Positions 10,838-27,715 of a stretch of DNA of 64,000 nucleotides are shown here, piece by piece. Below the pieces are notes generated by a model, which worked only from the letters and a program-made list of their open reading frames with translations, was not told where the DNA came from and made no database searches. Position 1 is the first letter of the stretch; each line of letters opens with the position of its first letter. The stretch is from Escherichia coli (GTDB taxonomy: Bacteria; Pseudomonadota; Gammaproteobacteria; Enterobacterales; Enterobacteriaceae), in assembly GCF_003334785.1 (NCBI RefSeq), contig NZ_QOWV01000001.1; one strand, written 5' to 3'. The translations under genes and the position numbers were made by a program.

Positions 10838-10851
10838 TTGATACCGAACAA
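10838..10851 (+). promoter_or_regulatory. FNR box candidate for dmsA promoter
   Basis: TTGAT-accg-AACAA matches FNR consensus TTGAT-N4-ATCAA with one mismatch; dmsABC is an FNR-activated anaerobic operon. About 170 bp upstream of dmsA ATG, implying a long leader. Confidence 0.55.
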
Positions 10852-19730: not shown

Positions 19731-20321
19731 ATGCAGTCTGAACGTATTTATTTGGTATGGGCCCATCCTCGTCATGATTCATTGACCGCACATATTGCTG
19801 ATGCGATCCATCAGCGGGCAATGGAGCGGAAAATACAGGTGACGGAACTCGATTTATATCGGCGTAATTTCAACCCAGTGATGACGCCGGAAGATGAACC
19901 AGACTGGAAGAATATGGATAAACGTTATTCTCCAGAGGTTCATCAGCTTTATTCAGAGCTGCTTGAACATGACACGTTAGTGGTGGTTTTTCCTCTCTGG
20001 TGGTACAGCTTCCCGGCAATGCTAAAAGGATATATTGACAGAGTATGGAATAATGGGCTGGCTTATGGAGATGGGCACAAATTACCATTCAATAAAGTTC
20101 GTTGGGTGGCGCTGGTTGGAGGAGACAAAGAATCATTTGTCCAGATGGGCTGGGAAAAAAATATAAGCGATTATTTAAAAAATATGTGCAGTTATCTTGG
20201 TATTGAAGATGCCGATGTCACTTTCTTGTGTAATACAGTGGTATTCGATGGGGAAGAACTTCACGCGAGCTATTATCAGTCGTTATTATCTCAGGTACGG
20301 GATATGGTAGATGCACTATAA
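19731..20321 (+). CDS. ycaK: Flavodoxin-like NAD(P)H dehydrogenase (quinone)-family protein YcaK
   Basis: 196 aa MQSERIYLVWAHPRHDSLTAHIADAI...; flavodoxin_2-like fold. Confidence 0.9.
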   Translation: MQSERIYLVWAHPRHDSLTAHIADAIHQRAMERKIQVTELDLYRRNFNPVMTPEDEPDWKNMDKRYSPEVHQLYSELLEHDTLVVVFPLWWYSFPAMLKGYIDRVWNNGLAYGDGHKLPFNKVRWVALVGGDKESFVQMGWEKNISDYLKNMCSYLGIEDADVTFLCNTVVFDGEELHASYYQSLLSQVRDMVDAL

Positions 20322-20357
20322 GATGTGTTAAAAACGCTGTAGCAGAATGAAGCGCGG

Positions 20358-20393
20358 AATAAAAAAGCGGCAACTCAATAAAGTTGCCGCTTT
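20358..20393 (-). terminator. Intrinsic terminator of pflA (structurally bidirectional, also follows ycaK)
   Basis: agcggcaac-tcaataaa-gttgccgct 9-bp stem; T-run on the minus strand (plus A-run 20360-20365), TTT on plus side. Confidence 0.75.
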
Positions 20394-20402
20394 ACGGGGA
20401 AA

Positions 20403-21143
20403 TTAGAACATTACCTTATGACCGTACTGCTCAAGAATGCCTTTCACGCGTTCCATGGTCTCTTTCTTCGGTGGTTTAACACCGTCGAGTTTGTACTCTT
20501 CACCCATTGCCACCCATTTGTGTTTGCCCAGCTCGTGGTAGGGGAGAAGCTCGATTTTCTCAACGTTGCCCATATCACGGGTAAATTCACCGAGGCGATG
20601 CGCTGAATCGTCATCGTCAGACCAGCCTGGGACAACAACGTAGCGGATCCACACCTTCACATTTTTGTTCGCCAGATATTTAGCGAACTCCAGCGTGCGG
20701 TGGTTGGAAACTCCAACCAGATTTTGGTGGATCTCGTCGTTCATCTGTTTGAGATCGAGCATTACCAGGTCGGTTACTTCCAGCAGTTCATCAATCACCG
20801 GATCGTAACGACGAACAAAACCGTTGGTGTCCAGACAGGTATGAATGCCTTCTTTTTTGCAGGCGCGGAACCAGTCACGAACAAACTCAGCTTGCAGGAT
20901 TGCTTCACCGCCGGATGCGGTAACGCCGCCGCCGGAAGCGTTCATAAAGTGGCGATAGGTCACCACTTCCTTCATCAAATCTTCAACGGTAACTTCTTTA
21001 CCGCCATGCGTGTCCCAGGTGTCGCGGTTATGACAATACAGGCAGCGCATCAGGCAGCCCTGGAAAAAGGTGATAAAGCGAATACCTGGGCCGTCTACGG
21101 TTCCACAGGATTCAAAGGAGTGAATGCGACCAATAACTGACAT
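20403..21143 (-). CDS. pflA: Pyruvate formate-lyase activating enzyme (radical SAM)
   Basis: 246 aa from ATG 21143 ([23 protein letters not shown]...); radical-SAM CxxxCxxC motif CLMRCLYC. Track ORF adds 9 upstream codons. Confidence 0.95.
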
Positions 21144-21264
21144 TGCGGTGTTTCTCCAGATGTGGCCCATCTGAGGCCGTGTTGGTGCGCAGCTCGAAGG
21201 CTACGTCGAGTCTGTTTTGGCAGTCACCTTAAAGTATAGATAGCTGACAAAAAAGGCTCTCGCG

Positions 21265-21293
21265 CTAAAAAAGGCCCCACTTTCGTGGAGCCT
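21265..21293 (-). terminator. Intrinsic terminator of pflB
   Basis: On the minus strand GGCUCCAC-GAAA-GUGGGGCC (8 bp with one G.U) followed by UUUUUU, 42 bp after the pflB stop. Confidence 0.8.
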
Positions 21294-21334
21294 TTATTGT
21301 ACGCTTTTTACTGTACGATTTCAGTCAAATCTAA

Positions 21335-23617
<2,283 letters not shown>

Positions 23618-23671
23618 GTAACACCTACCTTCTTAAGTGGATTTTTTATTTACTGCGTACTTCGACAACCA

Positions 23672-24529
23672 TTAATGGTGGTCGTTTTCACGCAGGTAAA
23701 TGACCCAGTATGTCAACCCAACCAACAAACCACCACCGATAATGTTGCCGATCGTAACCGGAATCAGGTTATCAGTGATGAAATTCATCACGGTCAGGTG
23801 AGAAAAATTTTCCGGTGCAGAACCGACTGCGGTCCAAAATTCCGGGGATGCGAAGTCGCGGATTACAATACCCATCGGGATCATAAACATGTTTGCGATA
23901 CTGTGCTCAAAACCGCTGGCAACAAACATCGCGACCGGCAGCACCATAATGAACGCTTTGTCCATCAGGCTGCGGCCAGAATAACTCATCCATACTGCCA
24001 GACATACCATCAGGTTTGCCAGGATACCAAGACAGACGGCCTCAATAAAAGTATGGTGCACTTTGTGGTCGGCGGTTTGTAGGACGTTTAGTCCCCATTG
24101 ACCATTTGCGGTCATATACTCGCCGGAAAGCCACATTAAAAGTACAAACAGCAGTGCGCCGACCAGGTTGCCAAAATAGACATTTAGCCAGTTTTTCGCC
24201 AACTGACCCCAGGTGATGCGCCCACTCGCCTTAGCAACAACAATCAACACGGTGGAAGTAAAGAGATCGGCTCCGCAGACAACACAAAGAATCAGCCCCA
24301 GAGAGAAGCAAATGCCGCCAACCAGTTTTGCCATGCCGAAGGGCATTGTGCCTGTGCCAGTGGTTGCTGTGATATAGAAGACGAATGCGATTGAGATGAA
24401 AACACCGGCGGTAATCGCCAGATAGAAAGTCTTAAGCGGATGTTTCGTTGCTTTATAGACACCCGCCTCTTCGGCCACTTTGGCCATTGCAGCAGGAAGT
24501 AAAAGATCAAAAGGGTTGTCAGCTTTCAC
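23672..24529 (-). CDS. focA: Formate channel FocA (FNT family)
   Basis: 285 aa from GTG at 24529 (fMet-KADNPFDLLLPAAMAKVAEEAG...). Track ORF 23672..24703 extends 58 codons upstream into the promoter region; GTG start follows established annotation. Confidence 0.9.
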   Translation of the reverse strand: MKADNPFDLLLPAAMAKVAEEAGVYKATKHPLKTFYLAITAGVFISIAFVFYITATTGTGTMPFGMAKLVGGICFSLGLILCVVCGADLFTSTVLIVVAKASGRITWGQLAKNWLNVYFGNLVGALLFVLLMWLSGEYMTANGQWGLNVLQTADHKVHHTFIEAVCLGILANLMVCLAVWMSYSGRSLMDKAFIMVLPVAMFVASGFEHSIANMFMIPMGIVIRDFASPEFWTAVGSAPENFSHLTVMNFITDNLIPVTIGNIIGGGLLVGLTYWVIYLRENDHH

Positions 24530-24589
24530 ACTAACTCTCTCTTTATTAAGTCGGCGACGAGATACTAACAAAGCATTATAGATGAGAAA

Positions 24590-24603
24590 TTGATATAGAT
24601 CAT
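24590..24603. promoter_or_regulatory. FNR box candidate in focA-pflB promoter region
   Basis: TTGAT-atag-ATCAT, one mismatch to TTGAT-N4-ATCAA, 61 bp upstream of the focA start in a very AT-rich 400-bp regulatory region. Confidence 0.6.
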
Positions 24604-24934
24604 ATCTCGCCTGGCTTATAGGCCCGTAACTCGCATGGTTTTTATGCAAATACGGAGTAAATATTTGATTATCCAAATAAAAATAAATTTTAAAAATTAA
24701 CAAATGAGTTGAATTTTTTCCGCATCCTCCGCTAAAACAGTTAATTAAAAGGGAGCATCAGGCGAATAAAGTAACAATATCGATCGTATTTATTAAATAC
24801 AAATTACCGATATTTAACCTTATAATTACAATTATTTTATTAATGCAAATATATGTAAAGCGGGGCATTAAAAAAACGCCCCGTAATATAACTCAGACTA
24901 ATCATTAAGCCTACATTGCGTAGGCTATTTGATT

Positions 24935-26695
24935 TTATTTTGCCCAGAATGCTGCTTTGGCGCGCTGCAGCTTTTCGTAGGCCTTCAACAACGACTGATG
25001 TGCAGCAAACGCGTGCAGATCGCTATCTACCGGTTGCAGGCCGTAAAACGCCGCTTCGCCGCTCATTGCCGCACTGGCGGCTTCTACGGCATCTGCGCCG
25101 TACATGCGAACAAACGCATTCAGATATTGCAGCGGCTGGCGATCTTCTTCCTGTGCCAGTAATAACAACGTTTGCAGGCAGCGATAATAGTTGGCGCGTT
25201 CCGGACTAAATACTGATGAGTTAAACTCCATCGTCCATTCGGTCCAGACCAGAGCCTGTTCCAGATCGCCACCAGCCAGCGCCAGCATGGCTTTTAATTC
25301 ACCGATACGCAGGGTGTACCAACCGTTATCCGACCCGGTCGCCAGACCCAACAGCTCACGCACGCGGGTAAAGTCATCAAAACCTTCTTCATCCAGTTGC
25401 TCGATGAGGTTCAGGTAATCTTCTTTTTCCCACTCGCTGCCTGGTAGCGAAAGAATCGTTTCACGTAAATGGCTGCCCATACTGTTATTCGCGAGCCACA
25501 GATCTTCAGCCGGATAAATATCGGACATGCCAGGCACGATAATACGGCAAGCATAAACGCCCAGATGCTCGTAATCGGCAATATAAACTTCTTTATCTTC
25601 TTTGTTGAAGATAGCCATCAGTGTGGCGAACTCTTCTTCCGTGGTGCCGGAGAAATTCCAGTCCACAAACGGATAATCGGCATCCTGCTTGAACAGGTCC
25701 CAGGAGATTAAACCGCTGGAATCGATAAAGTGCGTTTCGAGGTTGGTATGTTCAGCGACTTCTTCATCATCGAAGGTTGGCGGAGTAAACACATCCAAAT
25801 CTTTCAGGCCACGACCTTGCAGCAGCTCGGTCACGGTACGTTCCAGTGCTACGCCAAAATCAGGATGCGCACCGAAAGAGGCAAAGCAGGTACCGTTAGC
25901 AGGATTGAACAGTACCACGCAAATCACCGGATACTGGCCGCCAAGCGAACCGTCATAAGCGAAGATTGGGAAACCCTCCGCTTCCAGCGTTTCGATGGCT
26001 TCAACTACTGCTGGGTAACGCGCCAGCACGTCTGCCGGGATCTCTGGCAGGCTGATGCTTTCAGCAATAATGCGGTTTTTCACGTAGCGTTCGAAAACTT
26101 CAGACAATCCCTGAACGCGTGCTTCGTTGCGGGTATTACCTGCGGACATACCGTTGGAGACGTACAGGTTACCAATGATATTCATCGGAATATAAACGGT
26201 CTGATTGTCGGACTGACGCGTAAACGGCAGGCCGCAAATACCACGATCTTCGTTACCGGATTGTAGGTCAATCAGCATGCTGCCGGTCAGTTCATTCTCC
26301 GGATCATAAAACGCGCGCAGACGGTCATCGAGCAGCCCTTCTGGCACATCGTCATTTTCGGTCAGTGGGAACCATTTTTCGTTGGGATAATGCACGAACG
26401 GACCGTTGGCGATGGTTTCGCCCAGCCAGAAGTCCGCAAAAAAGTAGTTGGTTGAGAGACGCTCGAAATATTCACCGAGTGCAGAAGCCAGCGCCGCTTT
26501 CTTGGTTGCGCCTTTACCGTTGGTAAAACACAGTGCGCACTCTTTGTCGCGAATATGTACAGACCAGACGTTAGGCACGGGATTCAGCCAGGAGGCCTCT
26601 TCAATCTGAAAGCCGAGGTCTGAAAGTTTTTGCTGGAAGCGAGCGATGGAATCTTCCAGAGCGGCATCTTTGCCGGGGATAAATGTTTGCGTCAT
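24935..26695 (-). CDS. ycaO: YcaO-domain ATP-dependent protein (ribosomal protein S12 methylthiolation accessory factor)
   Basis: 586 aa from ATG 26695 (MTQTFIPGKDAALEDSIARFQQKL...); track ORF adds 11 codons upstream. Confidence 0.92.
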   Translation of the reverse strand: MTQTFIPGKDAALEDSIARFQQKLSDLGFQIEEASWLNPVPNVWSVHIRDKECALCFTNGKGATKKAALASALGEYFERLSTNYFFADFWLGETIANGPFVHYPNEKWFPLTENDDVPEGLLDDRLRAFYDPENELTGSMLIDLQSGNEDRGICGLPFTRQSDNQTVYIPMNIIGNLYVSNGMSAGNTRNEARVQGLSEVFERYVKNRIIAESISLPEIPADVLARYPAVVEAIETLEAEGFPIFAYDGSLGGQYPVICVVLFNPANGTCFASFGAHPDFGVALERTVTELLQGRGLKDLDVFTPPTFDDEEVAEHTNLETHFIDSSGLISWDLFKQDADYPFVDWNFSGTTEEEFATLMAIFNKEDKEVYIADYEHLGVYACRIIVPGMSDIYPAEDLWLANNSMGSHLRETILSLPGSEWEKEDYLNLIEQLDEEGFDDFTRVRELLGLATGSDNGWYTLRIGELKAMLALAGGDLEQALVWTEWTMEFNSSVFSPERANYYRCLQTLLLLAQEEDRQPLQYLNAFVRMYGADAVEAASAAMSGEAAFYGLQPVDSDLHAFAAHQSLLKAYEKLQRAKAAFWAK

Positions 26696-26824
26696 GAAAA
26701 TCACTTTAGTCGTACGGAAAGCGCGCAATAATACGGGTTTTATCTCAAAGGCGCTATCACCGCCGCCATGCCGATGAACTGTTGACTATGCTTTTAGCGG
26801 ATAAACCACGTTAAGAGCATAAAA

Positions 26825-27517
26825 ATGAAGGCGTTCGATCTCCACCGTATGGCATTTGATAAAGTGCCTTTTGATTTCCTTGGCGAAGTTGCACTACGTA
26901 GTCTTTATACCTTTGTACTGGTCTTTTTGTTCCTCAAAATGACCGGAAGACGCGGTGTGCGGCAGATGTCGCTGTTTGAAGTTTTAATCATTCTGACGCT
27001 GGGATCAGCGGCGGGAGATGTGGCGTTTTATGATGATGTGCCGATGGTCCCGGTACTTATCGTCTTTATTACTCTGGCGTTGTTATACCGCCTGGTAATG
27101 TGGTTGATGGCGCACAGTGAAAAACTGGAAGATCTTCTGGAAGGCAAGCCAGTTGTCATTATTGAAGATGGCGAGCTGGCCTGGTCGAAACTCAATAACT
27201 CCAACATGACGGAATTTGAGTTCTTTATGGAGCTACGATTGCGTGGCGTGGAGCAGCTGGGGCAGGTACGTCTGGCGATTCTCGAAACCAACGGGCAAAT
27301 CAGTGTCTATTTCTTTGAAGATGACAAGGTGAAACCGGGTTTACTTATTTTACCCAGTGATTGTACGCAGCGTTACAAAGTGGTGCCGGAGTCGGCGGAC
27401 TATGCCTGTATTCGTTGTAGTGAAATCATTCATATGAAAGCGGGGGAAAAACAATTATGTCCGCGCTGTGCAAATCCAGAATGGACGAAGGCAAGTCGGG
27501 CAAAACGGGTGACCTGA
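26825..27517 (+). CDS. ycaP: DUF421-family inner membrane protein YcaP
   Basis: 230 aa; hydrophobic N-terminal half; C-terminal CxxC...CxxC (CIRCSEIIHMKAGEKQLCPRC). Confidence 0.88.
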   Translation: MKAFDLHRMAFDKVPFDFLGEVALRSLYTFVLVFLFLKMTGRRGVRQMSLFEVLIILTLGSAAGDVAFYDDVPMVPVLIVFITLALLYRLVMWLMAHSEKLEDLLEGKPVVIIEDGELAWSKLNNSNMTEFEFFMELRLRGVEQLGQVRLAILETNGQISVYFFEDDKVKPGLLILPSDCTQRYKVVPESADYACIRCSEIIHMKAGEKQLCPRCANPEWTKASRAKRVT

Positions 27518-27715
27518 CAGTAAAAACATCGGCTTTTTGCTAATAATCCGAGAGATTCTTTTGTGTGATGCAAGCCACATTTTTGCCCTCAACGGTTTTA
27601 CTCATTGCGATGTGTGTCACTGAATGATAAAACCGATAGCCACAGGAATAATGTATTACCTGTGGTCGCAATCGATTGACCGCGGGTTAATAGCAACGCA
27701 ACGTGGTGAGGGGAA

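Follow-up and report, generated by a model that had tools for sequence, protein, structure and literature searches.

A mapped FNR operator and a putative IHF core in the regulatory region of the Escherichia coli focA-pflB operon

Two FNR boxes had been predicted from sequence in the DNA upstream of focA-pflB, and they were found to differ in kind. The stronger one (site 1, 24590-24603) is the established, already mapped FNR operator of the focA-pflB promoter P6 (FNR-1), and the weaker one (site 2, 24665-24678) is most likely not an FNR operator, the conserved part of the latter probably representing an IHF core rather than an FNR box, as judged from its sequence and conservation. Taken as a whole, we consider this reading likely. 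Positions are those of the window, which is the whole 64-kb stretch of DNA that was analysed. The focA-pflB control region is a classic anaerobic promoter of E. coli, and site 1 is already known and included in genome-wide FNR site lists, so that its recognition here adds nothing new.

Results and discussion

The focA-ycaO spacer

Window positions 20063-27563 were found to correspond to positions 950000-957500 of NC_000913.3 (E. coli K-12 MG1655), with 0 mismatches over the 7.5 kb compared, which confirms the predicted assignment to the focA-pflB regulatory region. A window coordinate equals the NC_000913.3 coordinate minus 929,937, and the older U00096.2 numbering used in papers equals NC_000913.3 minus 777. 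When 24400-25000 was compared by megablast, all 5,426 complete E. coli genomes matched, with annotated focA and ycaO. The gene order in MG1655 is pflA, pflB, focA and ycaO, and both the list of open reading frames and the MG1655 annotation place focA, encoding a formate channel, at 23672-24529 on the minus strand, with a GTG start at 24529 and a product beginning with VKADNPFDL. It is the first gene of the regulated operon and is followed downstream by pflB (21335-23617, minus strand), and the ycaO reading frame lies from 24935 onward on the minus strand, with its stop at 24935. The spacer between the GTG start of focA and the stop of ycaO comprises 405 bp (24530-24934), with a GC content of 0.23-0.32 across 24600-24900 (in 100-bp windows) compared to approximately 0.5 in the flanking genes. 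The original prediction of a 400-bp AT-rich spacer was thereby borne out, and both of the strings it named were present, exact and on the plus strand, at 24590-24603 and 24665-24678.

The upstream edge of the regulatory spacer is the 3' UTR of ycaO, for which RNA folding predicted two hairpins on the minus strand (24900-24934 and 24861-24883, together spanning 24861-24934) with a fold energy of -30.1 kcal/mol (z = -4.9), and these hairpins would be expected to form a terminator. An Rfam scan of the spacer gave as its sole result a DapZ-like match in this 3' UTR; membership of DapZ (RF02551), a family of 3'-UTR-derived sRNAs, was rejected as the match is sub-threshold (25.3 bits compared to a gathering score of 56, E 0.053), and it most likely reflects a resemblance in shape only.

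Regions enriched for H-NS, at 24011-24693 and 24815-25497, flank or cover the AT-rich spacer according to the anaerobic H-NS ChIP-chip table of Myers et al., and there is a small inconsistency with Table S6 of the same study, in which the focA FNR site overlaps no nucleoid-protein enrichment.

FNR site 1 is the operator of P6

Site 1 (centre 24596.5) reads TTGATATAGATCAT on the plus strand and ATGATCTATATCAA on the focA-sense strand, and agrees with the FNR consensus TTGAT-N4-ATCAA at nine of the ten half-site positions. Counting the bare consensus TTGATN4ATCAA with at most one mismatch gave 3 occurrences in the window compared to 2.4 expected, which is not significant alone, and as this count was uninformative a weight matrix was used instead. 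The matrix was symmetric and was built from the 62 ChIP-bound FNR sites of Table S6 of Myers et al. (2013), with the focA site left out. Site 1 scored 16.8 bits and ranked first in the 64-kb window, the runner-up reaching 11.3 bits; such a score was reached in 10% of simulated 64-kb sequences and in 0.15% of simulated 405-bp spacers of the same composition. The same scan, which the original prediction had proposed as a check, placed site 2 at -1.7 bits and rank 575 in the window, and so upheld the first of the two predicted boxes and not the second.

The same 14-mer is listed for focA at 953750 (U00096.2), corresponding to window 24590, under an FNR ChIP-seq peak in Table S6 of Myers et al. 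(PatSer 14.37, ln p -12.86; PMC3688515). The peak centre, given as 953741 or 953746 (window 24581-24586), lies 10-15 bp from the centre of site 1, and the peak was called by three ChIP-seq callers, by ChIP-chip and in an earlier ChIP-chip study (PMC3688515); Grainger et al. likewise report focA among the FNR targets. In Table 1 of Myers et al., focA-pflB is assigned to Category 1, which comprises operons under direct activation by FNR; its top site is located at -40.5 relative to the transcription start site (TSS), both sigma70 occupancy and expression are increased anaerobically, and Table S12 gives an aerobic-versus-anaerobic expression ratio of 0.145, the direction of which we infer from Table 1 (PMC3688515). 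In addition, when compared to the induced lac promoter, a cloned "pflB promoter" fragment that starts with its forward primer at window 24639, and does not include site 2, was weaker in air (4.9-fold) and stronger under anaerobic conditions (2.5-fold), which is consistent with site 1 and P6 being sufficient for anaerobic induction.

For phylogenetic footprinting, a FocA scan of a species-representative genome collection yielded 80 Enterobacteriaceae loci, and the 431 bp upstream of focA were aligned for 76 of these together with the window (77 sequences). In the 76 species, the half-sites of site 1 showed identities of 1.00 and 0.995, with variation confined to two positions of the N4 spacer (0.76 and 0.71). 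In all of the species the site lay between -67.5 and -69.5 relative to the focA start, and it was always the best FNR match. Site 1 thus combines a consensus and weight-matrix match, a position of the -41.5 type and conserved half-sites with in vivo occupancy and FNR-dependent expression, the last two resting on published data. The strong FNR match predicted at 24590-24603 is accordingly well founded, given its score, its ChIP occupancy and the conservation of its half-sites.

Two further matches in the window concern other genes. The fourth-best match to the matrix (10.6 bits), TTGATACCGAACAA at 10838-10851 upstream of dmsA, falls on the FNR ChIP-seq peak that Myers et al. report for dmsA (939992 in U00096.2, window 10832) and is a second known FNR operator within the window. 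The sequence TTGATGTCGGGCAA at 35893-35906 (11.05 bits) corresponds to site 965053 near ycaI in Table S6 of Myers et al., where it is predicted and not ChIP-bound, and thus represents a good FNR motif without occupancy.

Promoters and start sites

The centre of site 1 is at -40.5 of the TSS given by Myers et al., which places the P6 start at approximately window 24556 and gives a 27-nt leader. Judging from the spacing to this start, the -10 hexamer of the FNR-dependent P6 would be TAGTAT (24562-24567, minus strand), and a perfect TATAAT hexamer (24575-24580, minus strand) just upstream of a TSS at 24566 marks an overlapping, P6A-like promoter; the two hexamers are 100% and 99.8% conserved in the 76 species, respectively. 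Kaiser and Sawers reportedly described overlapping promoters, P6 and P6A, in 1997, and the TATAAT promoter matches this description. The TSS-seq data of Kim et al. (2012) contain a single focA TSS, at 953726 (U00096.2; window 24566); the UTR is given as 37 nt long, and the sequence upstream of the start ends in ...TATAATGCTTTGTTA. This start is the one seen aerobically, and site 1 is centred at -30.5 relative to it, over its -35 region. A full-text literature search for four 14-mers gave no match, and searches for P6/P7 wording gave nothing useful.

A further sigma70 promoter-like sequence, TTTACA-17-AATAAT (24831-24859, minus strand; TSS near 24824), was found by consensus scan with 10 of 12 matching positions and is our candidate for P7; the same hexamers were assigned to focA-pflB by RNA polymerase genomic SELEX by Shimada et al. 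(2014). Two anaerobically induced focA peaks are present in the sigma70 ChIP-seq data of Myers et al. (953695-953697 and 954032-954040 in U00096.2; PMC3688515), which correspond to window ~24537 and ~24872-24880 and are approximately 340 bp apart. The second promoter would accordingly be situated ~270-330 bp upstream of P6, and not 75 bp. The position of P7 was derived from the consensus scan together with the SELEX promoter and the sigma70 ChIP peaks, with an uncertainty of tens of bases. The hexamers of the far-upstream promoter are poorly conserved outside Escherichia (0.58 and 0.45, 76 species), and no other strong FNR-like site was found near it, the best remaining match in the spacer scoring 3.7 bits at 24883. 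With the second promoter this far upstream, site 2 would lie between the promoters, where an architectural protein fits and a class II FNR site does not.

A conserved block at the far-upstream end of the spacer, TATATTACGGGGC (24878-24890, minus strand), consists of a -10-like hexamer that continues into the 5' arm of the second ycaO 3' UTR hairpin. It is ~94% conserved in 76 Enterobacteriaceae, is located beneath the sigma70 ChIP-seq peak at 24872-24880, which is anaerobically induced, and may serve as a promoter element, as a terminator element or as both. In E. coli KFu015 (NZ_CP147130.1), a river-water strain, a 768-bp IS1 is inserted in the focA-ycaO spacer at window 24859-24867, with a 9-bp target duplication, AAGCGGGGC. 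The insertion falls at the -35 hexamer of the far-upstream promoter, within the hairpin, and cuts both of these off from the ArcA/IHF/FNR region.

ArcA sites in the spacer

The Lynch-Lin consensus for the ArcA box is [A/T]GTTAATTA[A/T], and an exact match to it, AGTTAATTAA, was found at 24739-24748 on the plus strand, at ~-188 from P6. Its identity averages 0.91 over 24738-24747 (nine of the ten box positions, 76 species), and it lies within the ArcA motif that was predicted for 953895-953909 (U00096.2; window 24735-24749) by Federowicz et al. (2014). Further upstream, Tables S1-S4 of Park et al. (2013) list a site of four direct repeats with 16.7 bits, TAATAAAATAATTGTAATTATAAGGTTAAATATCGGTAATTTGTATTTAATAAA (953949-954002 in U00096.2; window 24789-24842, minus strand), under an ArcA ChIP peak at ~window 24805. 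The listed sequence agrees with that of the window, and the stretch shows at least two TGTTA-like repeats with 11-bp phasing under a ChIP peak, as is characteristic of an ArcA-P direct-repeat site. The other ArcA peak of Park et al., focA1 (~window 24386), is located inside focA and is without a motif.

The general picture of a multi-promoter region controlled by FNR, ArcA and IHF, as originally put forward, was right in outline: the published data include an FNR ChIP-seq peak with a weight-matrix site, ArcA ChIP peaks with a direct-repeat site, and at least two promoter regions bound by sigma70.

Site 2 is probably an IHF core

Site 2, the "weaker half-site" of the original prediction, reads TTGATTATCCAAAT on the plus strand and ATTTGGATAATCAA on the sense strand, and contains one perfect FNR half-site only. 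Approximately six positions per simulated spacer score as high as site 2 or higher, and eight do so in the real spacer. Furthermore, a 405-bp spacer would be expected to contain 1.3 TTGAT/ATCAA pentamers, and 73% of the simulated spacers contain at least one. The match of site 2 to the FNR motif is thus no better than a chance match. The centre of the FNR ChIP-seq peak is on the side of site 1 that faces away from site 2, with no pull towards the latter at a resolution too coarse to separate the two sites. In the 76 species, the proximal half ATCAA is conserved at 0.93, the supposed spacer at 0.80 and the distal half at 0.61, and the conservation contrast computed with an FNR mask at site 2 is -0.03 (rank 226 of 391). 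A position of -40.5 would apply to site 2 only with respect to a hypothetical start near 24631, where the table of Kim et al. (2012), with its single focA start at 24566, has no focA TSS. The low score, a distal half less conserved than the spacer and an unshifted peak leave the weaker FNR box predicted at 24665-24678 unsupported, and FNR most probably does not use this sequence as an operator.

On the minus strand, a sequence matching the IHF core consensus WATCAANNNNTTR exactly, AATCAAATATTTA (24658-24670), includes the TTGAT of site 2. No other exact match occurs in the spacer, and there are 6 in the 64-kb window compared to 2.4 expected; the core is centred at ~-108 from the P6 TSS. Conservation in the 76 species amounts to 0.93 for WATCAA, 0.43 for N4 and 1.00 for TTR, i.e. 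only the specified positions of the core are conserved. Of the 77 sequences, 56 retain the exact core, with 18 different N4 variants, and most of the sequences without it deviate at just one or two specified positions; the conservation contrast computed with an IHF mask ranks 3 of 392 in the spacer. As conservation follows the IHF mask and not the FNR mask, site 2 was assigned to a putative IHF core. Strong IHF sites carry a 5' A/T-rich element upstream of the core, and an A/T tract, TTTAAAATTTATTTTT (24679-24694, minus strand), is located just upstream of the core on the sense strand with a mean conservation of 0.97 (76 species). The combination of an exact core and an upstream A/T tract suggests that the tract belongs to the IHF site. 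Sirko and co-workers are said to have footprinted, in 1993, a single IHF site in the focA-pflB regulatory region. In the anaerobic IHF ChIP-chip table of Myers et al., none of the regions begins or ends within 953300-954399 (U00096.2), and the same authors mark the focA FNR site as lying outside IHF enrichment (PMC3688515).

Directly after the IHF core, and overlapping its TTR, the sequence TACTCCG (24653-24659, minus strand) is conserved as TACNCCG in many genera. It matches the NarL/NarP heptamer, the consensus of which is TACYYMT, at six of seven positions. The focA-pflB operon is nitrate-repressed, and TACTCCG may be linked to this repression.

Alternative readings of site 2

It is conceivable, and in our judgement unlikely, that both sites are genuine FNR operators and that site 2 is a weak FNR-2, either serving a P7 that starts ~41 bp downstream (~24631) or acting as an upstream tandem site 74-75 bp, or ~7 helical turns, from site 1. 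FNR sites are reportedly associated with both P6 and P7 in work from the Sawers laboratory, and Table 1 of Myers et al. counts "2" FNR sites for focA-pflB at a relaxed threshold, the location of the second being unstated (PMC3688515). A start near 24631 would agree with two features found at a suitable distance downstream of site 2, a weak -10-like ATAAAA and a conserved block, AAAACCA, but the TSS table of Kim et al. (2012) speaks against it, and the second sigma70 peak is ~250 bp further upstream. The fermentative Fnr region of Federowicz et al. (2014) is broad (window 24246-24877), but the ChIP-seq peak centre of Myers et al. is not displaced towards site 2. The perfect half-site is 93% conserved, and a few genera have an overlapping FNR-like 14-mer of 11.3 bits, TTGATAATCAACAA, three bases over from site 2; against this stand the chance-level score, the non-consensus distal half with its lower conservation than the supposed spacer, and an invariant TTA that lies outside the FNR 14-mer and is part of the IHF core.

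The same bases have also been predicted as an ArcA motif, GTAAATATTTGATTA (24657-24671), by a FIMO-type search (p 1.6e-5) and lie inside an ArcA ChIP region (supplementary tables of Federowicz et al., 2014), so that site 2 might be part of one of several ArcA-P direct-repeat sites in the spacer, given that ArcA is known to bind at several positions there (Park et al., 2013). The prediction is a weak one. Both repeat elements of GTAAATATTTGATTA deviate from TGTTA, and Park et al. have no ArcA motif at this position, their motif-bearing peak being the one at ~24805 and focA1 being motifless; the conserved WATCAA....TTA together with the upstream A/T tract fits IHF better, and we hold the ArcA reading to be very improbable. 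Somewhat less improbable, and still doubtful, is a composite element at 24655-24680, in which a single FNR half-site overlaps with an IHF core and a weak ArcA repeat. If this were the case, IHF would compete with a second FNR dimer (or with ArcA-P) ~108-116 bp upstream of P6, FNR at site 2 would be on the same helical face as FNR-1 at a distance of 74-75 bp, and an oxygen- or pyruvate-dependent switch would be added to the known architecture. That the pentamer is a functionless chance occurrence in AT-rich DNA is what the pentamer frequencies in simulated spacers would allow, but the 70 bp around site 2 (24655-24725) rank with the best conserved DNA of the spacer and show a position-specific pattern in the 76 species; it follows that this stretch is functional whether or not it is bound by FNR, and a chance origin is scarcely credible.

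Proposed mechanism

Under the favoured reading, with site 1 as FNR-1 and site 2 as an IHF core, the [4Fe-4S] FNR dimer binds the near-palindromic site 1 in the absence of oxygen, ~41 bp upstream of the P6 start. Overlapping the -35 region and presumably contacting RNA polymerase, it would activate P6 as a class II activator. As the dimer would also sit at -30.5 of the overlapping TATAAT promoter, its binding should additionally shift initiation from that promoter (TSS 24566) to P6, probably by occlusion. IHF would bind at the site 2 core and bend the DNA, and this bend could bring ArcA-P bound upstream (24739-24748 and 24789-24842) towards the complex of FNR and RNA polymerase by looping.

Comparison with known systems

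The use of a weight matrix together with phylogenetic footprinting separated a real operator (16.8 bits, invariant half-sites) from a look-alike (-1.7 bits, wrong conservation pattern), and the lesson for annotation is that an FNR box should not be assigned on the basis of a single TTGAT in AT-rich DNA. When compared to the P6 FNR site of focA-pflB in E. coli K-12 (953750-953763 in U00096.2, 954527-954540 in NC_000913.3, 24590-24603 here), site 1 is identical in sequence and position and likewise equal in its distance from the TSS (-40.5/-41.5), i.e. without any difference, and the two are the same site. The yfiD (grcA) promoter has two FNR sites 53 bp apart, both of which pass the threshold, with PatSer values of 17.25 and 13.87 (Myers et al., Table S6; PMC3688515). 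In focA, by contrast, one site passes the threshold and site 2 is far below it, so that there is no resemblance at the sequence level to the tandem arrangement of yfiD.

In the narG promoter, FNR is positioned at -41.5, IHF near -110 to -125 and NarL near -200. With site 2 read as an IHF core, focA-pflB would have a similar layout, comprising a class II FNR site, a predicted IHF core at ~-108 and a phosphorylated response regulator upstream. The counterpart of NarL would be ArcA, at ~-188 and at -233 to -286, and focA-pflB differs from narG in employing ArcA rather than NarL, in having an additional overlapping TATAAT promoter (TSS 24566), and in having a second, far-upstream promoter.
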